DNA of 64,000 nucleotides from positions 300,711-364,710 of the forward strand of contig JBGAKG010000005.1 in NCBI GenBank assembly GCA_044224495.1, given 5' to 3'. The notes beneath the pieces were generated by a model. The model was not told the DNA's origin. It worked only from the letters and a program-made list of their open reading frames with translations, and searched no databases. Positions 43,016 to 61,496 of this stretch are shown one piece after another. The position numbers were made by a program, and so were the translations under genes. Every line of letters starts with the position of its first letter. The stretch's first letter is position 1. This DNA is from Polyangiaceae bacterium. GTDB lineage: Bacteria > Myxococcota_A > Polyangia > Polyangiales > Polyangiaceae.

Positions 43016-43470
43016 ACATCGACCTGCCCTGCGCGTGCGCATGCCCCTGCCCGCCGGGCAGCTCGCGTACACGCCGGCTAGCGCGAACCTGCCCATGCGC
43101 ATGCGCATGCCCCTGCCCGCCGGGCAGCTCGCGTAGACGCCCGCTTCGGGACATGGCGAAGGGTTCGTCCTCGCGCCTTGGTAGGTCCTCGCTCGGGAGG
43201 AGGAGTGGGAGGGGACCAACCCGTCGCTCCGCAAACCTCTCCCTCTCCCTCTCCTCCTCCCGAGCGACGACCCACCAGCTCGGAAGAATCCACACAACCA
43301 GCTCGCGTGGATGTCCGGCCTGGGAGAAACCTGCCCATGCGCATGCGCATGCCCCTGCCCGCCGGGCAGCTCGCGTGGACGCCCGCTTCGGGGCAAGGCA
43401 AGGACAAGGGCAAGGGCAAGGGCAATGGGAGCGCGAGCGTCCGTTCACGACTTGCCATCACGTCCTTTCG
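43016..43470. repeat. complex repeat array (R1 GCATGC/palindrome units, long-hairpin R3 unit, GCAAGG microsatellite)
   Basis: Three R1 copies (43021, 43087, 43330) each with near-palindrome CTGCCCGCCGGGCAG. R3 unit with a 16-bp perfect stem (CGCTCGGGAGGAGGAG/CTCCTCCTCCCGAGCG) and (CCTCT)n. (GCAAGG)n at 43392-43430. Confidence 0.7.
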
Positions 43471-43474
43471 CTCC

Positions 43475-44038
43475 ATGAGCTCGCCCGTCGTCGACCGCAC
43501 CACCGTCCTCCGCGAATGGCTCGCTGCCGCGCCGTTGCTCGCACCCGAGTGGAAGGAGCCGGTCGAGCGCGAGACCGTCCGATGGGTCCGCCGCGCGCGC
43601 GTGCTCGCCTTGCTCGAAGCTTTCCAGCTCGGCACGCCCGACGCTTTCGAGAACGGCCAGTTCCTGGCGGGTGCGGTGCGCGAGCGTTACGCCAAGACGT
43701 CGGCGCTGATGGAGAAGCACGAAGGCCGCCATCGCGCGGCGTCGTCGATGGTGCCGCCGCGCTTGTTCTGGTGGCTTCTCGGCTACCGTCGAGAAGCGGA
43801 GCGACTGCTCACGTTTCACGACGGGCTGCTCGAAGCGGGAATCGACGGTGTCTTCCAGGGCGTCGCCGTGACGCTAGCGGCGACGGAGCAGGCGCGAGGC
43901 TCGGTGGCGGAGATCGACGAGCTCCTCCTCGAGATGATCTCGCCCGACGACCGCAAGCTGCGGGGCGATGCGATCGAAGGTTGGCCGGACGCCGACCTGG
44001 AGGTGCTCCGGCGGCGGGAGGTTTGGGGGGACTGGTGA
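43475..44038 (+). CDS. orphan hypothetical protein embedded between repeat arrays
   Basis: ATG at 43475 in the frame of ORF 43178..44038. Non-repetitive 187 aa. Confidence 0.45.
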   Translation: MSSPVVDRTTVLREWLAAAPLLAPEWKEPVERETVRWVRRARVLALLEAFQLGTPDAFENGQFLAGAVRERYAKTSALMEKHEGRHRAASSMVPPRLFWWLLGYRREAERLLTFHDGLLEAGIDGVFQGVAVTLAATEQARGSVAEIDELLLEMISPDDRKLRGDAIEGWPDADLEVLRRREVWGDW

Positions 44039-44640
<602 letters not shown>

Positions 44641-45224: not shown

Positions 45225-45436
45225 TCAGGACTTCAGCAGCGGGCGACCCTGCGCGTCGGTGAACTTGCCGGTGAGGATCATGATCAGATCGATCACGGTC
45301 CAGATCCCGCATCCGCCGAGCGTGCAGAGCTGAGCGATCCCCGTGCCGATCTTCCCGACGTAGAAGCGGTGCACGCCGAGCGGCCCCGCAACCAGGCAGA
45401 GGATCAGCGTCGTCATCCAGGGCTTCTGCTCCATGT
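45225..45436 (-). CDS. TM2-domain small membrane protein
   Basis: GVHRFYVGKIGTGIAQLCTLGGCGIWTVIDLI matches the TM2 domain consensus. Confidence 0.7.
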
Positions 45437-45519
45437 CGATCTCCAATTCGTGGGCGGTGTGTTCGGGCGGTAACGTAGCAGATGCCGCGCCGGACGGAAC
45501 TCGTTAGGCTTCGGTACGC

Positions 45520-45927
45520 ATGCCCACCCGCTCCGTCGCCGTGCGCCGCGCCCTCGCCGTCGCGGGGGCCTCGCTCGCCGTGGTGGCGGCTTGCGCTCCG
45601 GCTCCGACGCAGCCGCCGCGCTTCTTCGGCCCCACCCGCGGCGAGCCCGATCCGAGCGACCCGCCGGACCCGCCCGACGTGCCCGACGGCGACGGCGAGT
45701 GCAAGACCGACGCGGACTGCGTGATGACGAACTTCACGGATTGCTGCGCGTGCTGCGAGTGCACGAAGCCGCCGTACGCGATCCTCCACACGAAGCTCCA
45801 CGCGCTCGAAGCGCGCTGCGCGGACACCGACTGCGCACTCGATGGGTGCAACACGAAGCGGTGCCCGCCGTGCACGCCGCCAGCGGCGAAGGCGGTTTGT
45901 GACGAGGGGCAATGCGTGGAGCGGTAG
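45520..45927 (+). CDS. Cys-rich lipoprotein
   Basis: Signal peptide with lipobox AAC and many Cys residues. Confidence 0.55.
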   Translation: MPTRSVAVRRALAVAGASLAVVAACAPAPTQPPRFFGPTRGEPDPSDPPDPPDVPDGDGECKTDADCVMTNFTDCCACCECTKPPYAILHTKLHALEARCADTDCALDGCNTKRCPPCTPPAAKAVCDEGQCVER

Positions 45928-45980
45928 AGAAAAAGACGAATACGGAACATGGAACGGGATCGGGAACGCGGGATGCGGAA
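45925..45980 (+). repeat. R2 repeat family copy a (upstream of tRNA-Leu)
   Basis: TAGAGAAAAAGACGAATACGGAACATGGAACGGGATCGGGAACGCGGGATG, related to 58805-58856, 59224-59305 (inverted) and 60916-60982 (inverted). Confidence 0.55.
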
Positions 45981-45986
45981 GGAGAA

Positions 45987-46070
45987 GGCCCCTTGGCGGA
46001 ATGGCATACGCAGTGGATTTAAAATCCGCGGCCGCAAGGCGTGAGGGTTCGAGTCCCTCAGGGGCCACCA
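45987..46070 (+). tRNA. tRNA-Leu (anticodon TAA), type II with long variable arm, CCA encoded
   Basis: Acceptor GGCCCCT/AGGGGCC, anticodon stem GTGGA/TCCGC, loop TTTAAAA giving TAA, T-arm GAGGGTTCGAGTCCCTC, then ACCA. Confidence 0.85.
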
Positions 46071-46081
46071 TTCAACGATGG

Positions 46082-47104
46082 ATCGTCGTTGGCGCTCTCG
46101 TTGCTCTCTCGTGCGCGAAGAGCAAAGGGGATGCGGCCGATGGCGGCGATGCGGCAGCCGCTCCCACGACCCTGGCCGTCGTCGACTCCGGGCCCGGGCC
46201 CGTTTCGACGGCGAAGCCCGCTGCCGGGGCCGTCGTTTGGTCTCATGTCGCTCGGCTCGAGGACGACGCTCTGCTCGCCAAGCAGGTCGCCGTCTTGCTC
46301 CCTCACTTCGGCGCTTCTCCCGATGGCAAGGCCAAGGGGCCCTTCGAGCTCCAACGCGTCGCGATCGGGCCTGCCGGCATGACGCCAGCACGCCAGGCCA
46401 CCCTCGTCGCGCGCGAGGGCGGCGCGAGCCCGATGGTGCTCGTCACCGAAGGCGACAAGCTCCTGTGGACCAAGGAGCAACCCGTCGCCGGCATGACTCC
46501 GCCCGTCGAGCACGTCACGATCGCGCCCCACGACGCGCTCGGTGTCGCGCTGTTCGGCTGGAACCCCGCCAACGGCGTCGTCGTCGGCCGGGTCTGGGCC
46601 GATGACTCCAACGCGTTCGGCGACTTCGAGATCCTCCACCTCACGTCGTGCACCGACGTCGTCGCCGCGTACGTTCCCAACGAAGGCATCTGGATCGTCG
46701 CCGAGACGCCGGGCGGGCCGATGTTGCAGCTCCTCGACGAGAACAACGTCCTCCAGCGCGGGCGCACCGGCTTGCTCGTCGGCGCGGCCCCGCGCGCAGC
46801 CGCCCCGCTCTCCCTCGCGCTCGCGAGCGACGGCGCGCTCTTCCTCGGCTACTGGAGCGCTCCCACGACGCCGACCGGCGACGACCGCTTCGCCGTCGCG
46901 CGCTTCGTGCACGGAAAAGTCTCGGGCGCGATCCTCGAGACGACGATCCCCCGGGGCCCGCTCGACCGCATGCCGATGCGGGCGGAGGGCGATGGCATCC
47001 GCGTCGAGCTCCCGCGCGGCGCCGTCGGGAGCAAGGCCATCGCGCTCGCGATCGACGCGACGGGCGCCGTGCGCCCGATCGCGAGCCCGGCCGGCGCGAA
47101 GTGA
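46082..47104 (+). CDS. hypothetical lipoprotein (start uncertain)
   Basis: Frame of ORF 45842..47104. Signal-peptide-like IVVGALVALSCAK begins immediately after the tRNA-Leu 3' end. No in-frame ATG/GTG/TTG between the tRNA and the lipobox. Confidence 0.45.
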   Translation: MVVGALVALSCAKSKGDAADGGDAAAAPTTLAVVDSGPGPVSTAKPAAGAVVWSHVARLEDDALLAKQVAVLLPHFGASPDGKAKGPFELQRVAIGPAGMTPARQATLVAREGGASPMVLVTEGDKLLWTKEQPVAGMTPPVEHVTIAPHDALGVALFGWNPANGVVVGRVWADDSNAFGDFEILHLTSCTDVVAAYVPNEGIWIVAETPGGPMLQLLDENNVLQRGRTGLLVGAAPRAAAPLSLALASDGALFLGYWSAPTTPTGDDRFAVARFVHGKVSGAILETTIPRGPLDRMPMRAEGDGIRVELPRGAVGSKAIALAIDATGAVRPIASPAGAK

Positions 47105-47113
47105 CGGGCTCCG

Positions 47114-48523
47114 TCACTTCTCCTTTTCGAGCCGCTCCTTCTCCATGCACGCGCCCTGGTCCTTCGCGTCGCACGCCTGCTTCAAGAGCTCCTTCGCGCG
47201 CTTCATGTCGGCCGGGACGACCCCCTGCCCCGTCTCGAGCAGGATGCCGAGCGTGAAGCACGCAGCGCCGTCCTTCGCCTTGCACTTCGCCTCGAGCCGC
47301 CCTTGGATGACCTTGGGATCCTTCGGCCAGCCCTCGCGGGCGAGCGCGGTGAGCGCCATGCCGTTGCACGCGATGTTGACCTTCTCCGCGCACCCGCTCT
47401 TGAAGAGCGCCTCCGCCTTCGCGAAGTCCGGCGTCGTTCCGATCCCATTCAGGTACGCGCGGCCGAGGTTGATGCACCCCTCGACGGACTTGCCGTCGCA
47501 CGCGCGCTTGTAGAGCGCGAACACGTGCGCGAGGTCCTGGTTCTTCGTCTCGTAGGCCTGCCCGAGATCGCTGCACGCGGTCGCGCTCCCCGCGTCGCAG
47601 GCACGCGCGAAGTCCTCGCCGGCTTTCGCTTCGTCGGGGCCGCTGCCGAGCAGACCGTGGCTCCAGCAGTAGCCCGCGCTCCGACAGCTGTTGTCCTCGC
47701 CGAGCTCGCACGCGCGATCGAAGAGGACGCAGCCGCGGCGCTCGTCCTTCGCCACGCCCTTGCCGTAGAACACCATGTCGCCGAGGGCGACGCAGCCCGA
47801 CGCTTCCTTCGCCTCGCACGCCTTCGCGAAGACGTTCTCCGGCTTCTCGTCGTCGCTCGCGGCCTTGCGGGAGCCCCGCTGCACCAGGATGCCGAGCACC
47901 ACGCACCCACCCAGCTCGCCCGCGTCGCACGCCTGCTTGCCGTACGCCTCGGCCATCGCCGGATCCGCGGGCGCGCCCGGGTAGCCGCCCAGCGCGATGC
48001 GCGCGAGGTTCACGCACGCGTACGGATAGCCGCCCTTGCACGCGCGCTCGAGGAGCGCGATGCCTTTGTCCGCGTCGGACGTCAGGCCGAAGCGGCCCTG
48101 CAGCCACATCCCACCGAGGTTCGCGCACGCCTTCGCCGAGCCCCCGTCGCACGCCTTGCCGAGGAGCTCGAACCCGCGCTTCGGGTCGGCATCTCCGCCC
48201 ACGCCGAAGAGGCGCAGGATGCCGGAGCCCCCGCACGCAGCCGCGTCGCCGAGCTCGCACCCACGATCGCAGAGCTTTCGCGCGGAGGTTCCGTGCTCGG
48301 GCGTCACGCGGCGCAGCTCGGCCTCGGACGTGCCGCCGACCTCGGTCCGGCACGCGTCGGCGCACGCGGCGCCGTCGCCGGCTTCGCACTTCGCCGCCGG
48401 GGTCGTGGCCACCGGCTTCGCGGAGGGCACGACGGGGGGCTTCGTCGCGTCGGCGCCGCCGCACGCGACCGCGACCGCCGCGAGCGAGGCGGCGAGGAAC
48501 CCGAGCGCTCCGAGCGCCCTCAC
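47114..48523 (-). CDS. Sel1-repeat lipoprotein
   Basis: Repeated CxxG/KACDGG Sel1-like units. GTG start at 48523 overlaps the hutH stop. Lipobox AVACGG. Confidence 0.7.
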
Positions 48524-50124
48524 GACAGCACCCCCACGGCCTGCTCGACCGCAGCGACGAGCGCGCCCGACTCGAGGAGCGCGGTCACCGCTTCGATGTC
48601 CTTGTAGAGTACACGGTCCTCGGTCATCGGCGCGACGACCTCGCGCACCTTCGCGAGCGCCGCGCGCACGCCCTTGCTCGGCGCGAGCGGCCGGCGCTGA
48701 TCGAGGCCCGCCGCAGCGGTCATGATCTCGATCGCGAGCCCGTGGCGGACGTTGCGGACGATGTCCCGGAGCTTCAGCGCGCTCACGCTCCCCATGCTCA
48801 CGTGGTCTTCCTTCCCCGCCGACGACGGGATCGAGTCCACGCTCGCCGGGTGACACAGGACCTTGTTCTCGCTCACGAGCGACGCCGCGGCGACCTGCGC
48901 GATCATGAAGCCGGAGTGGAGGCCGGCCTGCCCGCTCGCGTTCGCGGCGAGGAAGGCGCTGAGCCCGGTGGACAGCGCGGGGTTCACGAGCTGCTCCACG
49001 CGCCGCTCGCTGATGTTCGCGAGCTCCGCGGTCGCGATCGCCGCGAAGTCGAGCGCCAGCGCGAGCGGTTGACCGTGGAAGTTTCCGCCGCTCAAGAGAT
49101 CCGCGTCGCTCCCCGGCACCAGGAAGACGCTCGGGTTGTCGGTCACGCTGTTCAGCTCCACCGCGAGGACGCCGTGCGCGTAGCCTAGCGCATCGCGCGT
49201 CGCCCCGTGGACCTGCGGCATGCAGCGCAGGCTGTAGGCGTCCTGCACCTTCCCGCAGTGCTTGTGGCTCTCCATGATCTCGCTCTCGGCGAGGAGCGCG
49301 CGCAGGTTCTGGGCGACCGTGGCCTGTCCCGGGTGCGGGCGGACCGCGTGGAGGCGCGGATCGAACGGCGTCTTCGTGCCCTTGAGCGCCTCGAGGCTCA
49401 TCGCGCCGGCGACGTCGGCCGCGACCGCGAGCCGCTCGGCGGCGAGCACCGCCAGCGTCCCGAGCGAGGCCATGAGCTGCGTCCCGTTGATGAGCGCGAG
49501 CCCCTCCTTCGCCTCGAGGACGATCGGCGCGATGCCCGCCGCGTCCAGGACCTCCCGCGCGGGCCGGAAGTCGAGCGTGGCCGGCGGCGCCTTCGGATCG
49601 ATCCGGGCCGCCTCGCCTTCGCCGATGAGCACGAGCGCCAGGTGCGCGAGCGGGGCGAGATCGCCGGACGCCCCGACCGAGCCTTGCGCCGGGATGCGCG
49701 GGACGACGCCCCGCTCCAGCATCTCGATCAACCGGTCGATCACCACGTCGCGCACGCCCGACGCCCCGAGCGCGAGGACCTGCGCACGGAGCAGGATCAT
49801 CCCGCGCACCTCGGCGGCCGAGAGCGGGGCACCCACGCCGGTCGAGTGCGAGCGGACCAGGTTCCGCTGCAACGTGCGAATGTCGTCCGCGCCGATGCGG
49901 GTCTCGCTCAGCGCGCCGAACCCGGTGTTGACCCCGTAGACGTTGGGCGCGCGGTCCCCTGCCTCGGCGATCCGGTCGATCGCTCCACGGGACGCCCGGA
50001 CGCGCTGACGCGCTTCGTCGTCGAGCCGAACGGCGCGGCCGCGGACGGCGACGTCCTCGAGGGCGCGGGGCGTGATCCGCGGCGACTCACTCGGGACGCC
50101 TCCCAGAAAAACAGGGGTTTCCAT
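48520..50124 (-). CDS. hutH: histidine ammonia-lyase
   Basis: [17 protein letters not shown]-forming motif. Full-length HAL/PAL fold. Confidence 0.9.
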
Positions 50125-50174
50125 GCGGAGCCGTATAGCAAAAGAATTCCCGGGACGGGTATGCTGCGCGGCCA

Positions 50175-51893
50175 ATGGCAGTCCATCGCTTGCCCCTCGC
50201 CCTCCTCTGCGCGGTGCCGTGTCTCTTTGCGCCGACGGTCGCATCCGCGCTCGAGCCGCCGCCCGAGGCACCCGACGCCGTGCCCGAGGATCTGCAACGG
50301 CTCGTCCTCGACACGGGCCGCATCCCGCGGCCCAAGGTGGACCCGAACTACCTGCGCCTGCACCTCCGCGGCGAGGTGCAGCTCCGCGGCCAAGTGATGC
50401 GCAGCTTCCCGATGGACGTCAGCGCGACGACCATCAACGCGAACCCGGGAGCGATCGAGGACTCGCTCGGGCAGAACGCGTTCGTCACGCAGTGGATCCG
50501 CCTCACGCCGGAGCTCACCTGGCGCGACAAGCTCCGCTTCATCGGGCAGCTCGACTTGCTCCGCGGCTACGTCTTCGGTCAGACCACGCACGACGTCGGG
50601 GCCGACGCGTTCCCGCGCGACAACGGCGGCGACGCGTGGACGTACGTGAACCTCCGCTGGCTCTACGCCGAGTGGCGCAGCCCGATCGGCCTGTTTCGCT
50701 TGGGCCAGATGTCGAACCACTGGGGCATGGGCATCCTCGCCAACGACGGCGATCACCCGCCCCTCTTCGGCGACTACCGCGGCGGCAACATCCAGGAGCA
50801 GATCCTCTTCGCGACGAAGCCGGCCGGCGAGCAGAGCCCGTTCGTGCTCGGCGGCGCGTTCAGCCTCGTCTACCAGGACTCGACCGCGCGCCTCACGCGC
50901 GGCGACGTCGCCTTCCAAGGCGTGCTCACCGGCTTCTACGAGAAGGGCCCGAACCAGTTCGGCGTCTTCAGCGTTCTCCGCAGCCAGAGCACGGCGAAGA
51001 CCAGCGGCTCGGACATCTACTCCTACGACGACTCGATCGTCGTCGGCGCGGTCGACGTCGCCGGGCGCTTCGCCGTCCCGGTCCCCGGCAACGAGGACAC
51101 GTTCCTCTTCGGCGCGGCCGAAGGCGCCGTGCTGCTCGGCTCGACCAACGTGCTCCGTCAGCCGGATCAAGCCGCGAGCGGCGCGAAGACGGCGATTCGC
51201 TCGTACGGCGGCGCCGCCGCGATCGGCTTCGTCCACCGCAAGGCATGCAGCTGTGGCGTCACGAAGGCGACCCCGTCGCCGATGGGTCCGCCCGACGCGC
51301 CCGACACCTACGGCAGCGTCGTCGCCCAGCTCGAGGTCGGCTACGCGAGCGGCGACGCGAACCCCTACGACGACGTCAACCGTCGCTTCACCTTCGATCC
51401 GAACCACAAAGTCGGCTTGCTCCTCTTCGACGAGGTCATGCGCTGGCAGACCGCGCGCGCGTCGACCGCCGCGCAGGATCCGCTCCTCACGAACGCGTCG
51501 CGCCCCACGCCGGGCGTGAACCTCCTCCCGTCGAACGGCGGCGTCTACGGCGCCGCGTACGTGAACCCGACCTTCATCTGGCGCCCCGCTCCCCCGCTCG
51601 ACGTGAAGGCCGGCGCGGTCATGGCCACCACGACCGCCGACTTCGTCGACCCGTACCGACTTGGTACACAGGGCTCGTACGTGAACTACCGCGGTGGCGA
51701 CCCGCGCCGGCACGACCTGGGCCTCGAGCTCGACCTCGGCGTCGAAGGGCGCATCAAGCTCGACCCGTCCCTCCGGTTGCAGCTGGGCGCCCAGGGCGCC
51801 ATCCTTTTCCCGGGCGGCGCCCTCGCCAACGCCGCCGGCGAGACCATGAAGACCCCGTGGCTCGCGGTCGCCCGCGTCGGCCTGCAGTTCTGA
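50175..51893 (+). CDS. putative outer-membrane beta-barrel protein
   Basis: Signal peptide, alternating amphipathic strands, C-terminal ...ARVGLQF ending in Phe. Confidence 0.6.
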
Positions 51894-51902
51894 GGTGCCG
51901 CG

Positions 51903-54900
51903 ATGAACCGCTTCGTCCCCTTCCTGTTTGCCAGCGCCCCGATCGTCGTGCTCGGCCTCGCGGCGTGCGGCATGGACACGATCCCGAACGACCTGCGCAG
52001 CACGCCGAGCGGGCCCGGCGCGAAGGTCGTCTGGAACGCGACCGCGCGGCCCTTGCCCGAGATCCCGATCCCGAACGACGTCGCCACCTTCTCCGATCCG
52101 ACGAGCCGCACCGGGCGCCGCGTCAATGCGTCGCTCGTCGCGAGCACCAACTTCGAGCGCGTCGCGCGCACCGGCTTCGACGACCTCGAAGGCTGGGGCA
52201 CGTTCATGCCGATGTCGGTCCAGTTCTCGCGCGCTGAGGGCGCCGACCCGCACGAGCCCGCGGTCGACCTCGCGAACGTGAAGGCGCGCATGCAGGGCGA
52301 CGACTACGCGTTCGACGACGATCCCATCTACGTCATCGATCTCAACACCGGGATCCCGGCCGTCCTCGACGTCGGCGCGGGGAACTTCCCCGTCATCCTG
52401 CGCGATCAGAACAAGTACTGGCCCAACGATCCGCACGTCGCGTCGCAGAGCCAGGTCTTCGAGGATCACGAGGAAGGCGCCGGGCTCCTCCCCGGCGACT
52501 ATCGACCCGAGCTCGACACCGACTACGACGGGGTGCTCGATCACCCGAACACGTTCGGCGCGCTCCCCGCGAACGGCGTCCCGGGCGTCGACAACCTCCT
52601 CACCTGGTACGAGCGCGAGACCGACACGCTCATCTTCCGTCCGCTCCTGCCGCTCAAGGAGAAGACCGAGTACGCGGTCATCCTGACCGACCGCCTCCGC
52701 GGCAGCGACGGCAACCCGGTGAAGAGCCCGTTCGCCACCATCTATCACCCGCAGCAGCGCGCGGGCGCCGAGCGCGTCGGTGCGCTCCTGCGCGACGCGT
52801 CGCGCACGAACTACTTCGGCGACCTCGCCGGCACGGGCCTCGATCACGTCGCGTTCATGTGGACGTTCACGACCCAGCCCGTGATCGAGGACATGCTCCT
52901 CCTCCGCGACGGCCTCTACGGCCGCGGACCGTTCGCGCGCTTCGCGACGGACTTCCCGCCGAAGGTCACGATGCTCCGCGCCGCGGGCAAGGTCCCCGGC
53001 AACGACCAGTCACCGGGGTGGGACAACGATCCGGTCTGCAAGCAGCGCGCGGCGCACCCCTACTCCGTCTACCTGAACGATCCCGACGTGCGCGAGAGCT
53101 TCAACAAGCTCTACGACGAGGTGTTCGGCTACAGCAAAGGCGAGCGGCTCGCGCTCGACGAGGCGAACTCCAACATCGACCACGTCATCGTCGGCACCTA
53201 CAAGTCGCCCTACCTCCAGGGCGATCCGAAGGGCCAGGATCCCGACGCGCGGTTCCACGTGAACTTCAAGACCGGCGAGGGCGACGTCCGCTCCGACACG
53301 GTCAGCTTCTGGGTCACCGTCCCGAAGACGACGGCCAAGTTCCACCAGCCGTTCCCCGTCTCGCTCTTCGGGCACGGCGTGGGCGGCAACGCCTCCGAGT
53401 CGCTCGCGCACGGCGGCAACTACGCGCGCAACGGGCTCGCGACGGTCACGATCAACATGCCGCAGCACGGCTTGCCCGACATCCCGGACGTCCGCGTGCC
53501 GGCCACCGCCGAGCTCTCGGCGCGGTGCCTCGTTCCGTGGGTCGACGCGATCCTCACGACCCGTGCGCTCGACCGCAACGGCGACGGTCAGCAGGAGCCG
53601 GGCTGGTGGTGGTGGTCGAGCCACATCATCAACGTCCGCGACAACGTCCGCCAGGGCACGCTCGACGAGATGCAGTTTACACGCATCTTGCGCACGTTCG
53701 ACGGCAAGACGATGAGCGGCCAGGACTACAACGGCGACGGCAAGGAAGACCTCGCCGGCGACTTCGACGGCGACGGCACGCCCGACATCGGCGGGCCCGA
53801 CGTGGGCATCTACTCGGCGGGCGAGTCGCTCGGCGGCATCATGAGCGAGGTCCACGGCGGGATCGACCACCAGGTGACGGCGACCGCGCCGATGTCGGGT
53901 GGCGGTGGGCTGACGGACATCGGACTTCGTTCGTACGGCGTGACCGATGCGCTGAGCCAGGTCCCCGGGCCGCTCGTCATCTCGATCCCGGCGACCGATC
54001 GCCCCGCGCGCAGCAACGGCGACAAGCGCACCAACTGCAGCAACGACCAGCGCAGCGTCCGCTTCTTCGGCTGGGACGGCGACGACATGGTCGAGGTCGA
54101 GCTCGCGTGCCTGAGCGCCGCCGAGGTCGACGTGGGCATGACCGTCGTGGTCACGAACCTCACGAGCGGTGAAGCCAAATGCGCCGGCACGCTCGACGGC
54201 GGGCGCTTTCGCGTGCCGGTCGGCGCGAGCATCGGCGATCGGCTGGACATCCAGATCTTCCGGACGCCGAACGCGGTCGACTCGTACGGCACCTGCCACA
54301 TCAAGGACGACGCGGTGGCGGGGCGCGCGATCCGGACCTTCGAGCAGAAGGCACCGACGTACACGGCGGTCGCGGAGCCCTACAAGCCGTGCCCGGACGA
54401 CGCCGTCTCCGGCTGCGCTCAGTTCATGTACCGCTTGTACCCGGTCGGGTCGCCGCTCGTGGCGCCGCAGGAGGGGCTCGGCTACGGGCGCAACACGCCG
54501 CGGTTCCGCCGCTTCTACCAGCTCGGGCAGATGGGCGTCGAAGGGGCCGACCCGGTCGACTACGCGCCCTACTACATGCTGAAGACGCTCCCGAAGCCGG
54601 ACGGAACGCCTTCGCCGCCGCACGGGTTGCTCAACATGAACACCGTCGGCGACGGGTTCGTGAACATCGCGACCGGTGTCGCCTTCGCGCGCGCGGCCGG
54701 CGCCGTTCCCTTCCTTCCGCCGAGCGCGCTGACGAAGTACCCCGAGTACGCGGACTACGTCACGCCGCCGGCGCTCTACGCGCAGCTCGGGAACAAGACG
54801 CCGAACCAGGTGCTGCTCGAGTACCACCTGATCGAGGGCATCGCGCGCATGGAAAGGCACCCCGCCGGTCCGACGTGCGCCGACAACTACGACAAGACGG

Positions 54901-55352
54901 ATCCGGTGCTGTGCCCCGGCACCGGCACGCTCGATCCGTCGGTGTGCAAGGCTGCCCTGGCGGACGTGGACTGGCTCGCCGAGGGTCGGCAGCGCTACGA
55001 CCAACAGCACCCGGGGGTGCCGCTCCGGCTCGCGCGCGTCGCGGGCCTCCACAGCGACAACGCGACGACGCTCGCGCAGGCATGGGCGCCGCGCCTCCTC
55101 GGCGCGCCGTTCGGGACCGACGGCGCTTGGGCCGGCACCGACCCGATCGTCGCGCTCGTCAACGTCTACCTTCGCCCCGGCGGCGCTCACACCTGGGAGA
55201 CGGGTGACGCATGCCGCGCGTGGGACCACGCGACCTACGGCGGGAACATGGCCGGGCACTTCCTCGTGACCGGCGGCAGGGACGCCTACTACCTGTCGCA
55301 CCCGCAGACGCACGAGTGCCTCGAGTCCCTCGACTGCCCGATGTGGAAGTGA
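51903..55352 (+). CDS. large lipoprotein (1149 aa) with putative alpha/beta-hydrolase GxSxG site (lipase-like)
   Basis: Lipobox GLAACG, GESLGG and FGHGVGGN motifs. Paralog of the next gene. Confidence 0.7.
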   Translation: MNRFVPFLFASAPIVVLGLAACGMDTIPNDLRSTPSGPGAKVVWNATARPLPEIPIPNDVATFSDPTSRTGRRVNASLVASTNFERVARTGFDDLEGWGTFMPMSVQFSRAEGADPHEPAVDLANVKARMQGDDYAFDDDPIYVIDLNTGIPAVLDVGAGNFPVILRDQNKYWPNDPHVASQSQVFEDHEEGAGLLPGDYRPELDTDYDGVLDHPNTFGALPANGVPGVDNLLTWYERETDTLIFRPLLPLKEKTEYAVILTDRLRGSDGNPVKSPFATIYHPQQRAGAERVGALLRDASRTNYFGDLAGTGLDHVAFMWTFTTQPVIEDMLLLRDGLYGRGPFARFATDFPPKVTMLRAAGKVPGNDQSPGWDNDPVCKQRAAHPYSVYLNDPDVRESFNKLYDEVFGYSKGERLALDEANSNIDHVIVGTYKSPYLQGDPKGQDPDARFHVNFKTGEGDVRSDTVSFWVTVPKTTAKFHQPFPVSLFGHGVGGNASESLAHGGNYARNGLATVTINMPQHGLPDIPDVRVPATAELSARCLVPWVDAILTTRALDRNGDGQQEPGWWWWSSHIINVRDNVRQGTLDEMQFTRILRTFDGKTMSGQDYNGDGKEDLAGDFDGDGTPDIGGPDVGIYSAGESLGGIMSEVHGGIDHQVTATAPMSGGGGLTDIGLRSYGVTDALSQVPGPLVISIPATDRPARSNGDKRTNCSNDQRSVRFFGWDGDDMVEVELACLSAAEVDVGMTVVVTNLTSGEAKCAGTLDGGRFRVPVGASIGDRLDIQIFRTPNAVDSYGTCHIKDDAVAGRAIRTFEQKAPTYTAVAEPYKPCPDDAVSGCAQFMYRLYPVGSPLVAPQEGLGYGRNTPRFRRFYQLGQMGVEGADPVDYAPYYMLKTLPKPDGTPSPPHGLLNMNTVGDGFVNIATGVAFARAAGAVPFLPPSALTKYPEYADYVTPPALYAQLGNKTPNQVLLEYHLIEGIARMERHPAGPTCADNYDKTDPVLCPGTGTLDPSVCKAALADVDWLAEGRQRYDQQHPGVPLRLARVAGLHSDNATTLAQAWAPRLLGAPFGTDGAWAGTDPIVALVNVYLRPGGAHTWETGDACRAWDHATYGGNMAGHFLVTGGRDAYYLSHPQTHECLESLDCPMWK

Positions 55353-55360
55353 GAAATCCC

Positions 55361-58300
55361 ATGCATTCTGCACGGAATCGACTGGCGCTCGCCGCGACGA
55401 TCGCAGGGGTCAGCCTCGCGGCGTCGTGCACCGACGTGGCTCCCGACGGGCTCTACGCCACGCCACCCGGCGACGGTCCCACCGTCGTCTTCGACGTCGC
55501 GCGCCGGCCGCTCCCCGAGATCCCGGCGCCGAACGACGTCGCCACCTTCCCCGATCCCACGAGCCGCACCGGCCGCCGCATCAACGTGAGCCTGGTCGCG
55601 CCGAGCGAGCTCGAGCGCTCCGCGCGCGAAGGCTTTGCCGAGATGGAGGGCTGGGGCACGTTCGCGCCGATCAGCGTCGCCTTCGCGCCGGGCGCCGGCG
55701 CCGACCCGCGCGACGCCGCGATCGACCTCGACAAGGTCCGCCGGACGATGCAGACGGACCAGTGGGACACGAGCGACGACCCCGTCTACCTCATCAACCT
55801 GACGACCGGCGTCCCCGTCCTGCTCGACATGGGCGCGGGGAACTTCCCCACGTCGATCCGTGATCGTGATCGCTACTACGCGAACGATCCGCGCGCCGCC
55901 GAGAACACCACGCTGTTCGAGACGGTGGAGGAAGGCGCCGGCCTCTCGCAGACGGACTATCGCCCCGACCTGGACACCGACTTCGACGGCGTCCTCGATC
56001 ACCCGAACACGCTCCCGAAGCCCGGCGGCATCCCCGGCGTGGACGACGTGATGAACTGGTTCGAGCGCCAGACCAACACGCTCCTCCTGCGTCCCGTCCT
56101 GCCGATGGACGAGAAGACGGAGTACGCGGTCGTCCTCACCGATCGCCTGACCGACACGCGCGGGCGGCCGGTGCGTTCGCCCTTCCCCTTCGTGCACCAC
56201 CCGCAGCAGCGCGCCGCGGTCCTGCGCGTCCAGCAGATCCTCGGCGACGGTGCGCGGCGCAACTACTACGGGGACATCGGCGGCACGGGGCTCTCGCACG
56301 TCGCGTTCGCGTGGTCGTTCACCACGGGTCCGTCGACGGAGGATCTGCAGCTCCTGCGCGACGGTCTGCACGGCACCGGCCCCTTCGCGCGCCTCGCGAC
56401 CGACTACCCGCCGACCGCCACCGCGTTCCGCTCCGCCGGGCTGCTCCACGATCCGTCGCAGGACTCGCCGGCGTGGAAGCAGGACCCGAAGTGCGCGGCG
56501 GTGTCGCAGAAGCCCTTCATCGTGAAGGTGGATCAGGTCAAGGCGACGCTCTCGGACCTCATCACGCGCGTGTTCCCGCTGAGCGCGCCCGAAGGGCGTG
56601 CCTTGCTCGAGTCGCTCGACAGCGTCGATCACTTCGTGCTCGGCAGCTACCCGGTCGCGTACTTCGTCGGCGCCGATCCGACGCACGAGAACCCGTTCGA
56701 GCACTTCCACCTCAACTACCAGACCGGCGAAGGCCGCGTCGTCACCGACGTCGGGCACTTCTGGCTGTCGGTGCCGAAGGCGAAGGGCACGTTCAAGCAG
56801 CCGTTCGACACGGTGGTGTGGGGCCACGGCACCACGCTCAACGCGGCGGAGACGATCATCCGCGCCGGCTACTTCGCCAAGCAAGGCATCGCGACGTTCG
56901 GCTTCGACGGCCCCGGGCACGGGCTCGTGCTCGACCAGGGCCTCAAGGTCCTGGCCGAAGGGCTCCTCTACAACGCGTGCCTGGTCCCTTGGGTCGAAGG
57001 GCTGACGGCGGGGCGCGCGCACGACATCGACGGTGACGGCGAGCCCGACTCGGGCGGCCTCCTGTGGACCGCGCACATCTTCCACTCGCGCGACAACATC
57101 CGGCAGACGGTGCTCGACGGCCTCCAAGCGTCGCGCGTGCTGCGGTCGTTCGACGGGCGCTCGGGCCCGCAGGACTTCGACGACGACGGCAAGCCGGATC
57201 TGGCGGGCGACTTCGACGCCGACGGGATCCCCGACGTCGGCGGCAAGGACGCGCGCATCTTCAGCTCCGGCGACTCGTACGGTGGGATCTTCGCGCAGAT
57301 CCACGCCGCCATCGATCCGAACGTCACGGCAGGCGTCGCGATCTCGGGCGGCGGCGGTCTCACCGACATCGCCGCGCGCTCGTACGGCGTCGTCGACTCG
57401 GTCGTCGAGCAGACGATCACGCCGCTCGTCGTCGGCGTGCCGGCGAACACGCGCTCGACCGACAAGAAGCCCGAAGGCACGCTCTGCACGGCGGACCAGC
57501 GCTCGATTCGGCTCGTCGTGAACGACCTCACGAGCTCGCGCGAGATCGAGATCGCCTGCCTGGGCTCCACCGAGCTCGATGCGAGCAGCACGGTCGTCGT
57601 CCGCAACCTCGACAGCGGCGAAGTGCGCTGCGGCGGAACCACCACCGACGGCCGGTTCCGCGTGCCCGTCCCCGCGACGGCCGGCGATCGGCTCCGGGTC
57701 GAGGTCGCGCGCTCCGCCAACGCGGTGGAGTCGTACGGCACGTGCGTCTGGCGCGACGGGGTGACCCCGCAGCGCATGATCGCGACCTTCGAGCAGCCGG
57801 CCGCGGCGTACCGCAAGGTCGGAAACCCGGACGCCCAGTGCGACGCTGCGGCGGGGTGCCAGCAGTACCGGAACACGTTCTTCCCGGTCGGTTCGGTGCT
57901 CGTGGCGCCGCAGGGTGGGCTCGGCTTGCGGCGTCAGTCGCCGGAGCTGCGGCGGCTGCTCCAGCTCTCGCAGGCGGCGCTGGAGACCGGCGATCCGATC
58001 AACTTCGCGCCGCTCTACATGATGAAGCCGAATCGTATGCCGGACGGCAAAGCGGCGTCGCCGAAGGGCTTCATCGGCGCGAACACCGTCGCGGACGGGT
58101 TCGTCGTCGTCGCGACGGGGCACGCGTTCACGCGCGCGATGGGGGCGCTCCCCTTCCTGCCGCCGGCGCGCCTCTCGACGCTGCCCGACTACGCCGACTA
58201 CGCGACGCCGCCGAGCTTGTTCGCGGCGTTCGGGGGCAAGACGCCGAATCAGCTCCTGATCGAGAACTACGCGATCGAGGCCGTGGCGCGCTTCCGGCGG

Positions 58301-58789
58301 CGCCCGGCCGATGCGACGTGCGGACCGAACTACAAGGTCACGACGGAGTGCACCTCGAAGCCGGCGACGAACCCCGACGTGTGCGCGCAGACCGTCTACG
58401 ATCCCGATTGGCACTCGGAGGGCAAGAACCTGTTCGGGGCGCAGCACCCCGTCGCGCCGCTGCGGCTCGCGCGGCGCGCGAACGTGCACGTGAAGTCGCT
58501 CGAGGATCTCGAGGCGACGTGGGCGCCGCGGATCCTGGGAGCGCCGTTCGGGACGGACCTCGCGTATGCGCCGAAGGACCCGCTCGTCGGGCTGATGGAT
58601 GCGTACGTGGCGCCGCTCGGCGAGCACGTGTGGATCAACGAGAACCCGTGCAAGAACTGGGACGAGGCCGTTTACTACGACCACGTGACCGGCCGGTTCT
58701 TCGCGACGGGGGGAACGGACCTTTACTTCTTGTCACATCCCCAGACGCATCAGTGCTTGGAGGATCAGAGCTGTGACTTCTTGAAGTAG
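55361..58789 (+). CDS. large lipoprotein paralog (1142 aa) with GDSYGG motif
   Basis: Lipobox SLAASCT. Collinear with and about 50% identical to the previous gene. Confidence 0.7.
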   Translation: MHSARNRLALAATIAGVSLAASCTDVAPDGLYATPPGDGPTVVFDVARRPLPEIPAPNDVATFPDPTSRTGRRINVSLVAPSELERSAREGFAEMEGWGTFAPISVAFAPGAGADPRDAAIDLDKVRRTMQTDQWDTSDDPVYLINLTTGVPVLLDMGAGNFPTSIRDRDRYYANDPRAAENTTLFETVEEGAGLSQTDYRPDLDTDFDGVLDHPNTLPKPGGIPGVDDVMNWFERQTNTLLLRPVLPMDEKTEYAVVLTDRLTDTRGRPVRSPFPFVHHPQQRAAVLRVQQILGDGARRNYYGDIGGTGLSHVAFAWSFTTGPSTEDLQLLRDGLHGTGPFARLATDYPPTATAFRSAGLLHDPSQDSPAWKQDPKCAAVSQKPFIVKVDQVKATLSDLITRVFPLSAPEGRALLESLDSVDHFVLGSYPVAYFVGADPTHENPFEHFHLNYQTGEGRVVTDVGHFWLSVPKAKGTFKQPFDTVVWGHGTTLNAAETIIRAGYFAKQGIATFGFDGPGHGLVLDQGLKVLAEGLLYNACLVPWVEGLTAGRAHDIDGDGEPDSGGLLWTAHIFHSRDNIRQTVLDGLQASRVLRSFDGRSGPQDFDDDGKPDLAGDFDADGIPDVGGKDARIFSSGDSYGGIFAQIHAAIDPNVTAGVAISGGGGLTDIAARSYGVVDSVVEQTITPLVVGVPANTRSTDKKPEGTLCTADQRSIRLVVNDLTSSREIEIACLGSTELDASSTVVVRNLDSGEVRCGGTTTDGRFRVPVPATAGDRLRVEVARSANAVESYGTCVWRDGVTPQRMIATFEQPAAAYRKVGNPDAQCDAAAGCQQYRNTFFPVGSVLVAPQGGLGLRRQSPELRRLLQLSQAALETGDPINFAPLYMMKPNRMPDGKAASPKGFIGANTVADGFVVVATGHAFTRAMGALPFLPPARLSTLPDYADYATPPSLFAAFGGKTPNQLLIENYAIEAVARFRRRPADATCGPNYKVTTECTSKPATNPDVCAQTVYDPDWHSEGKNLFGAQHPVAPLRLARRANVHVKSLEDLEATWAPRILGAPFGTDLAYAPKDPLVGLMDAYVAPLGEHVWINENPCKNWDEAVYYDHVTGRFFATGGTDLYFLSHPQTHQCLEDQSCDFLK

Positions 58790-58804
58790 TCGCGGCCCGC
58801 GGGA

Positions 58805-58856
58805 CAGAAGAAAAAGACGAATCCGGAGTAGAGAACGGGAATGGGAACGGGAATGC
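58805..58856 (+). repeat. R2 repeat family copy b
   Basis: CAGAAGAAAAAGACGAATCCGGAGTAGAGAACGGGAATGGGAACGGGAATG. Forms an inverted pair with copy c. Confidence 0.55.
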
Positions 58857-58883
58857 CGGGGCTCCCGTGCTAGACCAAGCTCG

Positions 58884-59048
58884 TGACGCTCTACATCCTC
58901 GCCGCGCTCGGAATCTTCGTCGCCATGGGGCTCATGCGCATGACGTACCGCATGTCGCGGCGCGACCGGCATGAGGGCATCCGGTGGCGCGGCATCGATT
59001 GGAACCGCAACGAAGAAGAACGCGACGACTCGGACGACGAGCCGAGCT
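58884..59048 (+). CDS. small putative membrane protein between the inverted R2 copies
   Basis: GTG start. One TM helix (LYILAALGIFVAMGLM) followed by an acidic tail. Weak call. Confidence 0.3.
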
Positions 59049-59223
59049 GACCGTGAGGTACTTCGCGCTCGCGATCGGGCTCGGTGCAACGCTCGTGTGG
59101 AGGCTGCGCCGTCACGGCGACCGAACCCTCCAACCTCCTGGGGTCGGGCCTAGCGCTCACCCTTCTGCTCGCGCTGCGCATGCGTCGCCGCGCCTGAGCG
59201 CGTGTGTCGAGCTGACCCTCTCG

Positions 59224-59305
59224 AATTCCCGTTCCCGTTCCCACCCCTCCGGGTGCCACGAAGCGCGGCGTTCTCTACTCCGGATTCGTCTTTTTTCTTC
59301 TAGAG
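59224..59305 (-). repeat. R2 repeat family copy c (inverted, with about 35-bp insertion)
   Basis: Reverse complement reads CTAGAAGAAAAAAGACGAATCCGGAGTAGAGAACG...GGGAACGGGAACGGGAATTC. Confidence 0.55.
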
Positions 59306-60148
59306 AGATCCCATCGTCACGCACCGGAAGCCATACTTCTCGTGAACCGCGCCGGGCCGAACGAACCCAGCGATCCCAATGCCGCTCCCCTTCGCCACCT
59401 TGCCGGGGTCCTTGCCATCGTAGCCGCCCCAGAGCTGGCCGTTCAGGTAGAGCCGAATCTGGTTCCCGATCTTGGTCGCGCGCACGACGTCGCCGTCCTT
59501 CGGGATCGCCGAGATGCCCCCCACGTTCCCGATGACGGTGAAGTCGCTCGCCGCGCCGTCGAGGTAGACGACGTCCACGCCGCCCCCCGCGTTGAACAGG
59601 ACCTCGTTCCAGATCCGCGAGCCCGCCTTGCTCGAGCAGCCGAGGATCAGCTCGAGCTCGTGGTTCGACCCGTTGGCGTTCGGGTTGTAGCCCGGCTCCT
59701 TGTAGATGACGGCCTCGACGAACTGGTCACCGGCGAAGCCGGGCACGAACGCGAAGCTGTCGTCGTACTCGACGCCCCCGTGGGTATCGAGGGCGATGCG
59801 CGTCTTCCCGTCCGACGCGAGGCCCACGCGCATGCTCGTGAGGATGCCGGGCGCGCCGTTGCCGCCCGTGCCCTGCGTGTTGTTGGTCCACACGCCGCCC
59901 GCAGAGAGCGGGTTCTCGATCGCCGCCGTCGCGAAGTCGAGCGCGTAGACGTTGCCCGCGTCGGGCCGAGGGCACAGGCCGGTCGAAGCGTCGCCGAGCC
60001 CGGTCGGAGCATCGACGCGAGCGTCCGCGCCGGTCCCATCCGACACGCCGGCGCCATCGCCGACGGCCCCCGAGTCGGAGGGAGCCGCGACGTCGTCACC
60101 GCAACCCACGCAGAGGATGACGACGGGTACGAAGAAGCGGCGCAGCAC
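59300..60148 (-). CDS. hypothetical lipoprotein
   Basis: MLRRFFVPVVILCVGCGDD lipobox. 282 aa. Confidence 0.6.
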   Translation of the reverse strand: MLRRFFVPVVILCVGCGDDVAAPSDSGAVGDGAGVSDGTGADARVDAPTGLGDASTGLCPRPDAGNVYALDFATAAIENPLSAGGVWTNNTQGTGGNGAPGILTSMRVGLASDGKTRIALDTHGGVEYDDSFAFVPGFAGDQFVEAVIYKEPGYNPNANGSNHELELILGCSSKAGSRIWNEVLFNAGGGVDVVYLDGAASDFTVIGNVGGISAIPKDGDVVRATKIGNQIRLYLNGQLWGGYDGKDPGKVAKGSGIGIAGFVRPGAVHEKYGFRCVTMGSL

Positions 60149-60171
60149 GCCTCAGCGTACCGCGAGCACGC

Positions 60172-60705
60172 TCAGGGCACGAGGGCGAGCGCGACGGCCC
60201 GGTCGAACGCCTCGGCGAGGTTCGTCACGGTACGCGCGCTGGCGGGGAGCCCGCACGTCCCATCGCGCAGATCGTAATACGACGCCGCGCTGGAGCCGAC
60301 CCACGTGGTCGCCCACACCGACGCGCCGTCGCAACCAACGCTTCCATCGTGGAGCTCCACCGCACGCAGCGCATCGACGAGCGAAGCGCCTTCGGACGTG
60401 GAGAGCGTGCGCTTGCCATCGGCGCTGGTGGCTGCGCCGGCGCCCGCATCGATCGCAGGCGAGCACGTCCAATGCCACGCAAGCTCACGGCTCGCAGCGA
60501 CGTAGGTGATGCTGGCCTCGGACATGGCCTTCGACCCACAAGCCTGGGAGCCCGCCGAACCGCCGTCCGAGAGCCGCAACGCAGGCCCAGGCCCCACCAA
60601 CCGAAGCGAGAGCTCCACCTTCGTGACCTGCTCCGACCACATCGACCCGCCCGAAGAAGAGCAAGCCGCAACGAAGACCAAGAGCGCGCCAACGCGAACC
60701 TTCAT
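60172..60705 (-). CDS. hypothetical lipoprotein
   Basis: MKVRVGALLVFVAACSSS lipobox at the internal Met of ORF 60172..60756. Confidence 0.55.
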   Translation of the reverse strand: MKVRVGALLVFVAACSSSGGSMWSEQVTKVELSLRLVGPGPALRLSDGGSAGSQACGSKAMSEASITYVAASRELAWHWTCSPAIDAGAGAATSADGKRTLSTSEGASLVDALRAVELHDGSVGCDGASVWATTWVGSSAASYYDLRDGTCGLPASARTVTNLAEAFDRAVALALVP

Positions 60706-60811
60706 TCCCTCCAAGTCTGCAATGCCCATACCGCCGCGTCGACCCAAGATTCCCAAAGAAACGATCTGGGCGATGCGCCACTACGTGCCACCACCGATCC
60801 GCCACGCCGCC

Positions 60812-60925
60812 GCCCCCCGTCCTCGTGCCCGTGCTCGTCCTCGTGCCCGTCCTCGTGCCCGTGCTCGTCCTCATGCCCGTCCTCGTGCGCGTGCTCGTGC
60901 TCGTGCTCGTCCGCGCTCCCGTTCT
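60812..60925. repeat. hexanucleotide tandem repeat (CGTSCT)n, about 16 units, in a divergent intergenic region
   Basis: CCTCGTGCCCGTGCTCGTCCTCGTGCCCGTCCTCGTGCCCGTGCTCGTCCTCATGCCCGTCCTCGTGCGCGTGCTCGTGCTCGTGCTCGT. Confidence 0.7.
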
Positions 60926-60982
60926 CTATTCCGCGACCCCGTTCCCCTTCCGTGTTCCGTATTCCCTCCTTTTCTTCTAGGG
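60916..60982 (-). repeat. R2 repeat family copy d, immediately upstream of the biotin-domain gene
   Basis: Reverse complement reads CTAGAAGAAAAGGAGGGAATACGGAACACGGAAGGGGAACGGGGTCGCGGAATAGAGAACG. Ends 8 nt before ATG 60990. Confidence 0.55.
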
Positions 60983-60989
60983 TTCCGCC

Positions 60990-61496
60990 ATGCGCTACTT
61001 CGTCTCCCTCGACCCCGCATCTCCTCCCCTGGAGGTCGACGTCGAGGAGCTCCCGTCCGGCGCGCTCTCCGTCCGCGCGGGGGGCAAACCGATCGACGTC
61101 GACGTCGCGACGCTCCGCTCCGCCCTGAGCATCCGCGTCGGCGGCGCCATGGTCGACCTCACGACCGAGGGCAGCCCGCCCGAGCTCGGCGCCATCGCCA
61201 GCGGCCACCGCTCCTACGTCCGCGTCGAGAGCGAGCGCATGCGCTCCGCCAACGCTGCGCAGAAGGGCGGCGGCGGCGCGAGCGATCGCCTCATCAAGAG
61301 CCCGATGCCCGGCCGCGTCGTGAAGATCCTGGTCGCCCCCGGCGACGAGGTGGTGCCCGGCCAAGCCGTCGTCGTCGTCGAGGCGATGAAGATGGAAAAC
61401 GAGCTCAAGGCCAAGACCGGCGGCAAGGTCGGCGAGGTCCACGTCGCCGTCGGCGCCACCGTCGAGAGCGGCGCCAAGCTCGTCACCCTGAGCTGA
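60990..61496 (+). CDS. biotin/lipoyl attachment domain protein
   Basis: Biotinyl-lysine motif EAMKMENEL. Confidence 0.75.
   Translation: MRYFVSLDPASPPLEVDVEELPSGALSVRAGGKPIDVDVATLRSALSIRVGGAMVDLTTEGSPPELGAIASGHRSYVRVESERMRSANAAQKGGGGASDRLIKSPMPGRVVKILVAPGDEVVPGQAVVVVEAMKMENELKAKTGGKVGEVHVAVGATVESGAKLVTLS

Follow-up and report, generated by a model that had tools for sequence, protein, structure and literature searches.

What is a short, purine-rich repeat that occurs four times between the genes of a Polyangiaceae bacterium, and how does it come to sit where it does? The repeat, designated R2, lies in a stretch of 64,000 nt (positions 300,711 to 364,710 of contig JBGAKG010000005.1, assembly GCA_044224495.1; hereafter the window), which has a base composition of 70% G+C. 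An initial annotation of this DNA had recognised four dispersed copies and proposed that they might be conserved promoter or enhancer elements or small mobile elements, with two of them forming the ends of a MITE-like cassette (MITE, miniature inverted-repeat transposable element). We find that R2 is a small, previously undescribed intergenic family of a clade of uncultured soil Polyangia (Myxococcota), and literature searches brought up no earlier account of such a repeat in myxobacteria. To our knowledge, small intergenic repeats have hardly been catalogued in Myxococcota. Our tentative reading is that R2 is a tolerated, orientation-specific repeat between cistrons, comparable in format to the mycobacterial interspersed repetitive units (MIRU), and that R2 also fuels local rearrangement.

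All four copies (a to d, Table 1) were found where the initial annotation had placed them, they can be aligned with one another, and as a family they stand far above chance expectation. Single short words recover the family only in part. The 17-mer AGAAGAAAAAGACGAAT, allowing up to three mismatches, matches copies a and b alone (chance expectation 0.01); relative to it, copy c has one additional A and copy d is further diverged (AGAAGAAAAGGAGGGAAT). The 12-mer GGGAACGGGAAT is exact in copies b and c only, and taken by itself gives 7 matches where 3.9 are expected, which is not significant. A profile built from eight copies detects exactly copies a to d and no other in the 64 kb, and finds three further copies, on which it had not been trained, in the contig of a relative (L140; E = 2e-12 to 8e-10). 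On this basis the family is real. Its density in the window is four copies per 64 kb, all inside 15 kb and three within 2.2 kb, and the loci of relatives carry 0–1 copy per 20 kb. Two short-read (Logan) contigs end inside R2, namely L119 from the source itself (position 1, equal to window position 59272) and L140 from the closest relative (position 1650). Such ends are to be expected if those genomes hold R2 stretches of about 30 nt at other places that are identical to these.

Twelve copies from about six loci were collected, four from the window and eight from other sequences, and the 11 that are full-length can be aligned over a core of fixed length. The unit measures 46–77 nt (typically about 50–60 nt, or about 55 bp) and opens with an A-rich lead, AGAAGAAAAAG, which in the full alignment reads (C)TAGAAGAAAAAG. 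The lead is followed by five or six degenerate repeats of 6–7 nt, GACGAAT-NCGGAAY-NNGGAAC-GGGAAC-GGGAAY-GCGGAAC, with a phasing of 7-7-7-6-6-7 nt, and both the number and the phasing of these repeats are preserved in distant copies. An A-rich core and tandem half-sites had been described in the initial annotation; R2 is, rather than a loose combination of these, a unit of fixed format. One strand consists of 76–83% purines, except in copy c (71%), where the value is lowered by an insertion of 26 nt (59243-59268). Elsewhere in the 64 kb, 55-nt stretches as rich in purines as copies a, b and d are confined to the arrays of another repeat, R1, and to one isolated 55-mer at 47111. GGA triplets number 4–8 per copy against about one per 55 nt of background. 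No tandem arrays of the whole unit were seen among the copies, and only the internal 6–7-nt repeats vary.

Single copies of R2 are non-palindromic and strand-asymmetric and have no capacity for self-pairing, and the folding of either strand is no better than that of shuffled sequence (z from -1.6 to +1.2). As far as we know, nearly all known bacterial families of small intergenic repeats are palindromic. A structured RNA was rejected for want of a fold and of a match in Rfam, where only two tRNAs reach the gathering score and 58700-61100 yields no match with an E-value of 10 or less. No intrinsic terminator (a GC-rich hairpin with a T run) lies in or beside any copy. G-quadruplex motifs (four runs of at least three G, loops of 1–7 nt) occur only in b and c, two of the 11 copies, and are not a feature of the family, and a Rho-utilisation site on the C-rich antisense strand would be attractive for copy c and the copy in L129 and is not general. 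A coding or read-through reading of R2 was also rejected, as the stop-codon phases differ between copies and no frame survives the A5/A6 indel that separates b from c. Diversity-generating retroelement template or variable repeats, KOPS, Chi, dif and ops were considered as well, and none of them fits.

Five sites (a, b, L133, L132 and the second copy of L140) lie between neighbours that point in the same direction, and R2 is sense-oriented in all five; no copy is antisense to both neighbours, each being sense to at least one. In copies a and c and in the second and third copies of L140 (both of which start in a TGA), the lead and the upstream gene's stop codon overlap; the lead begins 6–16 nt past the stop in b, L129 and L132. 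The last two were recovered from unrelated contexts in metagenomic DNA: in L129, R2 follows a TAG stop by 6 nt and faces a convergent gene, and in L132 it follows a TGA stop by 10 nt, with a gene for DNA adenine methylase about 120 nt further downstream. R2 and the downstream start are separated by anything from 0 to about 275 nt. Only in L133 is a start codon found within the unit, the ATG of the gene lying inside the terminal GGGAATGGGAATG of R2. Three copies (d, L120 and the first copy of L140) occupy all of the upstream region that two divergent, apparently leaderless genes have beyond their −10 elements. The initial annotation had linked the standing of the family to further copies and to a bias in position relative to genes; copies do occur beyond the window, and the bias in position and orientation is clear.

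Table 1. Copies of R2 in the window and the features that surround them. E-values are from the nhmmer search with the eight-copy profile and are circular for copies that were used in training.
Feature	Positions	Strand	Remarks
R2 copy a	45925..45986	+	nhmmer 45928-45978, E 8e-13
tRNA-Leu(taa)	45987..46070	+	directly downstream of copy a
1192-aa gene	55211-58789	+	TAG stop 16 nt before copy b
R2 copy b	58806..58859	+	nhmmer E 1e-11
TGCTAGACC, extended -10-like motif of the 55-aa gene	58868..58876	+	outside R2; kept with or without R2
55-aa single-helix membrane protein gene, conserved	58883..59050	+	third-position GC >0.9; lies between b and c
Spacer X	59051..59218		unique to this genome; contains second ORF 59084-59197
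R2 copy c	59219..59303	-	nhmmer E 5e-11
282-aa secreted or lipoprotein gene	59300..60148	-	patchy distribution; bracketed by direct repeats c and d; TAG stop overlaps lead end of c
156-aa lipoprotein gene	60172..60642	-	between d and the 282-aa gene in this genome only
Hexamer array (GAGCAC/GAGGAC/GGGCAC)n	60804..60915	-	continues the repeats of copy d; family D2; no start codon
R2 copy d	60926..60980	-	nhmmer E 3e-08

According to summaries in two papers (PMC3184786, PMC12548453), MIRU (Supply et al. 1997) are intergenic units of 40–100 bp in a high-GC genome, lying between co-oriented genes and in the same direction as these, with ends that touch or overlap the stop or start codons of their neighbours, and related genomes contain both filled and empty sites; they are thought to be tolerated since the translation of the next gene is preserved. 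R2 resembles them in size, in its sense direction between co-oriented genes (at all five informative sites a 40–100-bp unit points the way of both neighbours), in ends that in some copies touch a stop or start codon, and in the occurrence of filled and empty sites. The likeness rests on format, and similarity of sequence to MIRU is not expected. Under the reading that we tentatively favour, R2 would spread or duplicate over short distances and land exactly at gene boundaries, be it a co-oriented gene's stop codon or the space that separates the −10 elements of a divergent, leaderless gene pair. It would be transcribed on its sense strand together with the neighbours, and would be tolerated there because this strand is unstructured, rich in purines and similar to Shine-Dalgarno sequences (GGA/GGAG/GGGA), so that translation of the next cistron would be kept and possibly helped; the unit often terminates in ...GGGAATG and could thus supply a start codon. 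Nearby copies would, moreover, act as portable homology and, together with slippage-prone tracts, promote the insertion, deletion and inversion of gene-sized modules. If this is correct, R2 would be a second example of 'polite' insertion in the style of MIRU, in an unrelated phylum.

There are also clear differences from MIRU. R2 is built of internal 6–7-nt repeats, is about 80% purine, and no internal open reading frame (ORF) couples it consistently to both neighbours. Tandem arrays of whole units, of the variable-number tandem repeat (VNTR) type, and flanking tetranucleotide direct repeats were not seen for it, some copies lie between divergent genes or beside a tRNA, and the copy number is apparently low.

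Several observations weigh against this reading. An internal ORF that overlaps both flanking genes, a hallmark of MIRU, was not found as a rule in R2. Copy a precedes a tRNA gene, which makes a translational role meaningless for that copy; in front of c and L129 there is no co-oriented gene; and copies d, L120 and the first of L140 have no co-oriented gene upstream. The orientation statistic is weak (about 0.03–0.06), there being only 12 copies from about six loci, several of them orthologous. There is no visible mechanism of mobility, as inverted ends and target duplications are absent and no recombinase is found among the scanned ORFs: a Pfam scan of about 50 window ORFs, several of which have no match at all, gave no transposase, integrase or recombinase. 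The clustering of three copies in 2.2 kb could be explained by local segmental duplication alone. Finally, a search of 241 million metagenome records with a strict pattern of 20.5 bases gave seven loci, of which only two, L129 and L132, hold true elements in the R2 format. R2 thus exists in other high-GC genomes and in unrelated contexts, yet it is rare, or else the pattern was too strict.

The constancy of the internal architecture invites a different explanation, a widened form of the promoter or enhancer proposal, in which R2 is a cis-regulatory array of protein-binding sites. A sigma or transcription factor would occupy them on the DNA, or an oligomeric protein (resembling CsrA, TRAP or HutP, or Hfq at the (ARN)n lead) on the sense RNA. 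We consider this unlikely. Several features agree with it. The conservation of repeat number and phasing in distant copies points to constraint rather than free slippage, the density of GGA is 4–8 times that of the background, ten of the twelve copies have a co-oriented gene downstream, and copies d, L120 and the first of L140, which fill the entire region upstream of divergent −10 elements, must hold any upstream promoter elements that are used. The several GGA motifs, their short, regular spacing and the unstructured sense strand are reminiscent of the targets of CsrA/RsmA, TRAP and HutP. CsrA/RsmA sites of the CsrB/RsmZ type usually lie in the hairpin loops of dedicated small RNAs or in 5' leaders; R2 differs in being a spacer that begins at stop codons. 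The variable distance to the start codon, the copies c and L129 with no co-oriented gene ahead of them, and a period of 6–7 bp instead of the 10–11 bp usual in the phasing of DNA-binding dimers are all at odds with a binding array.

Close relatives, moreover, have the orthologous genes and lack R2 beside them. The tRNA-Leu, 55-aa and biotin-carrier genes that adjoin R2 in the window all occur without it elsewhere, each still preceded by a −10-like hexamer, and these motifs lie outside R2 and persist in its absence, so the conserved promoter or enhancer suggested in the initial annotation is not supported. No site with the sigma-70 consensus (−35/−10, spacing of 16–18 nt) occurs in 58600-61100 or 45300-46300, and patterns for sigma-54, extracytoplasmic function (ECF) sigma factors (GGAAC...CGT/GTT), including their −35/−10 pairing, and sigma-32 were not found by eye. 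An outward promoter on the pyrimidine strand (GTTCCG-N18-TANNNT) fits only copies d and L120, which are orthologous. As an orientation-specific unit at gene boundaries, R2 would offer a handle on the expression of leaderless and internal genes in Polyangia.

R2 was compared with its counterparts in related genomes. Orthologous loci were retrieved via the biotin-carrier protein, histidine ammonia-lyase and the 282-aa protein from Polyangia metagenome genomes with 70–89% protein identity. In all relatives that keep the second of two large paralogous genes, the biotin-carrier gene lies about 190–430 bp further on with the 55-aa gene between, and orthologues of the 55-aa gene are present in L120, L121, L125, L138 and L140. 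A full R2 occupies the spacer between the 55-aa and biotin-carrier genes in the window (copy d), L120 and L140, and in four relatives it is truncated or absent at the orthologous site. L125 (81%) has the lead only. L121 (87%) has the 55-aa gene on the plus strand and no R2, and carries, exactly at the place of window copy b, an R1-like palindrome with (GGGAGC)n arms (9640-9760). In L138 (70% identical protein), the 55-aa and biotin-carrier genes are divergent and only 25 nt apart, without R2, and L139 has neither the 55-aa gene nor R2.

Where R2 is present, the arrangements also differ. L120 (89%) has a single full copy between the biotin-carrier and 55-aa genes, with a junction like that of copy d. 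The closest relative, L140 (87–88% DNA identity), has the same junction at the biotin-carrier gene, followed by the order R2, 274-aa gene, R2, 55-aa gene, R2, with all three repeats co-oriented; the second of these is orthologous to copy c. Relative to L140, the window has gained 0.9 kb (the 156-aa gene and the hexamer array) and its 55-aa gene is inverted, an orientation that also differs from L120, L125 and L138. These comparisons indicate that R2 has been gained, lost and moved among close relatives, and it would serve as a marker of strain-variable loci in the large genomes of Polyangia. The suggestion of a small mobile element thus survives as far as movable, duplicating behaviour and differing presence at orthologous sites are concerned, and fails as regards a MITE-like form.

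The MITE-like form had been proposed for copies b and c, which were described as an inverted pair around about 370 bp. The pair itself stands, being joined by a perfect inverted match of 27 nt (58811-58837 and 59269-59295) and a second of 18 nt at 94%, and it is this arrangement that would correspond to the terminal inverted repeats of a non-autonomous transposon of 500 bp carrying small ORFs. It is the sole inverted arrangement, and single copies bear no terminal inverted repeats. No target-site duplication flanks 58805-59305 (GCGGGAC ... AGAGAGA) or any further filled site, and direct repeats were not found at the filled and empty tRNA-Leu sites of the window and L133. Solo copies (a, d, L120, L129, L132, L133) outnumber the one inverted pair, the 55-aa gene of L140 lies between direct and not inverted copies, and no transposase was found in the scanned ORFs. 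The interior is a conserved gene that occurs at this locus without R2 in L121 and L138 and, judged by these loci, the cargo between b and c is a host gene evidently older than R2 here. A classical MITE is therefore very improbable. MITE, Correia, REP, BIME and ERIC elements share with R2 that they are short, non-coding, intergenic, present in multiple copies and variable between strains; they differ in their terminal inverted repeats or stem-loops and, usually, target duplications, of which R2 has none, and R2 is strand-asymmetric and orientation-specific.

The initial annotation had allowed for one or two tiny membrane-protein ORFs between b and c. The first is the conserved 55-aa gene, marked as coding by its third-position G+C, and the second (59084-59197) is unsupported, with no match in any of the relatives' loci that were fetched. 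This second ORF, of 37 codons on the plus strand, ends in ...SCGGCAVTATEPSNLLGSGLALTLLLALRMRRRA, a tail resembling MYXO-CTERM sorting signals. The segment that contains it (59051-59218) may be a gene remnant, since it has no counterpart in these relatives.

The rearranged modules of this locus are bracketed by R2: the direct repeats c and d surround a segment of two genes, and the inverted repeats b and c, with their perfect 27 nt, surround the 55-aa gene that is inverted with respect to L140, L120, L125 and L138. This could mean that R2 is an attachment-like site for the exchange of gene modules, comparable to the attC/attI sites of integrons or the sfx sites of shufflons. Modules would be inserted, excised or inverted there either by RecA, using 30–60 nt of homology, or by a recombinase whose gene lies elsewhere. 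The row of co-oriented repeats and genes in L140, each repeat starting at the stop codon of the gene before it, and the gene content between repeats, which varies among relatives, recall the cassette arrays of integrons. The 282-aa family has a patchy distribution, with homologues in L141 and L144 that lie in unrelated neighbourhoods without R2, and a phage-type integrase is found in L135 at the tRNA-Leu locus, the locus of copy a. A gene of L121 equal in length to the 282-aa gene proved to be unrelated to it. An integron attC site is an imperfect palindrome whose single strand folds; R2, in contrast, has neither the dyad symmetry nor the foldable strand of attC or Xer-type sites, no integrase adjoins the array, and no recombinase gene was seen among the scanned ORFs of the window. 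One of the 'cassette' genes, that for the 55-aa protein, is ancestral at the locus and exists there without R2, the 156-aa gene and hexamer array were inserted without a new R2 boundary, and a simple inversion between b and c cannot turn the arrangement of L140 into that of the window. An exchange site is thus improbable, and somewhat more so in its specific form, in which R2 would be the non-palindromic, directional recognition site of an undescribed Polyangia system whose recombinase, encoded elsewhere, inserts, excises and flips modules. If recombination at R2 were nevertheless borne out, it would represent a new kind of gene-capture site.

The most prosaic explanation is that R2 is a neutral by-product, a decaying, minisatellite-like spacer produced by local segmental duplication and repair at fragile hexamer tracts, with no function or mobility of its own, in which case it would be ordinary. 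The surroundings are in keeping with this. The region is full of other hexamer and pentamer arrays, the copies cluster at two unstable loci, b and c look in alignment like a deletion derivative of a d-like copy, and the lead resembles the acidic-tail codons of the 55-aa gene (repeat family D2, 78%). What makes such an origin doubtful is the recurrence of the fixed format in two unrelated contexts on other metagenome contigs, together with the conserved number of repeats and the position of the copies exactly at gene boundaries and always in sense orientation. Among the other arrays of intergenic DNA in this region are (GGCAAG)n, (CTCCCT)n, (CATGCG)n and (GAGCAC)n, with (ACTCC)n in L133. The array that extends copy d (60804-60915, minus strand) has a period of 12/18 nt, would read as a peptide rich in His, Asp and Glu (HEDEHGHEDGHE...), and is absent from L140.

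The second locus at which R2 occurs in the window is that of tRNA-Leu. The first bases of copy a are those of the TAG stop (45925-45927) that closes a gene for a 135-aa lipoprotein, and the copy ends 1 nt before the tRNA, so that its position immediately upstream of tRNA-Leu, as first annotated, is confirmed. L133 has no R2 upstream of the tRNA and has one downstream, beyond a microsatellite, and the two copies share the subfamily motif CGGGATCGGGAA. The tRNA-Leu(taa) locus is itself unstable, as seen in the window (45987-46110), L133 (14000-14210) and L135 (14243-15445). In L133, the (ACTCC) microsatellite of about 14 units directly follows the tRNA, and the spacer contains an ops-like sequence, GGCGGTAG, found nowhere else; no tRNA was found at the locus in L135, where the integrase lies. 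The gene that follows tRNA-Leu in the window has no canonical in-frame start, the ATG at 46078 being out of frame with the lipoprotein-like frame.

The genes next to copies b and d have unusual starts. No Shine-Dalgarno sequence precedes the 55-aa or biotin-carrier genes, and from their sequence both look leaderless. TGCTAG is followed by exactly 9 nt to the GTG of the 55-aa gene in the window, L120, L121 and L140, and by 10 nt in L125. A hexamer similar to TANNNT lies 6–7 nt before the ATG of the biotin-carrier gene in the window, L120, L121 and L125, and L138 has the hexamer TATAAC 12 nt ahead of a GTG. Copy d adjoins the start of the divergent biotin-carrier gene, with its −10-like TAGGGT (60978-60983) and its ATG (60990). 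The −10-like hexamers 6–7 nt before the starts of the two genes can be seen at 58868-58885 and 60978-60992 in the window, 9946-10043 in L120, 9814-10003 in L121 and 1426-1443 in L140, and in the 25-nt spacer of L138 (5960-6003) two of them overlap back to back. A short, ATG-initiated upstream ORF ends at the TGC-TAG before the 55-aa gene in the window (58839-58873), L120, L121, L125 and L140, with the peptides MGTGMPGLPC, MKSVFSC, MPAANTPFSAAC, MRASC and ...MGTGMRNEEESASGDALALGC. It stops 9 nt short of the GTG and does not overlap the 55-aa gene, and it may be a leader peptide, a re-initiation device or a side effect of the −10-like motif.

Other searches gave no additional copies. A scan of a genome collection with AAAAAGACGAATNCGGA, too unspecific a pattern, gave 117 chance matches, none of them real, and scans of viral contigs and a BLAST search of plasmids for R2 likewise gave chance matches only. 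An apparent tandem R2 lead in L127 (3837-3960) was rejected, since what is duplicated in tandem there is 27 nt from the 3' end of tolR, in an unrelated genome of 49% GC. Here the last 27 nt of tolR/exbD (...VTDTEH and the stop codon) are repeated about five times between tolR and tolA, and the pattern was matched by chance.

The ORFs of the window that match Pfam are ordinary chromosomal genes, coding for ThiC, Lon, a DEAD-box helicase, a LysR regulator, histidine ammonia-lyase and others. The R1 region (43020-44600) is a mosaic of (GGCAAG)n, (CTCCCT)n/(GGGAGT)n and (CATGCG)n arrays, some of which form long inverted repeats. Upstream of copy b, two tandem paralogous genes (51903-55352 and 55211-58789) specify proteins of about 1150–1190 aa with no Pfam match and agree in about 70% of their DNA along extended parts. 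L120, L121 and L125 retain both genes, L138 has a single copy and L139 only a fragment.

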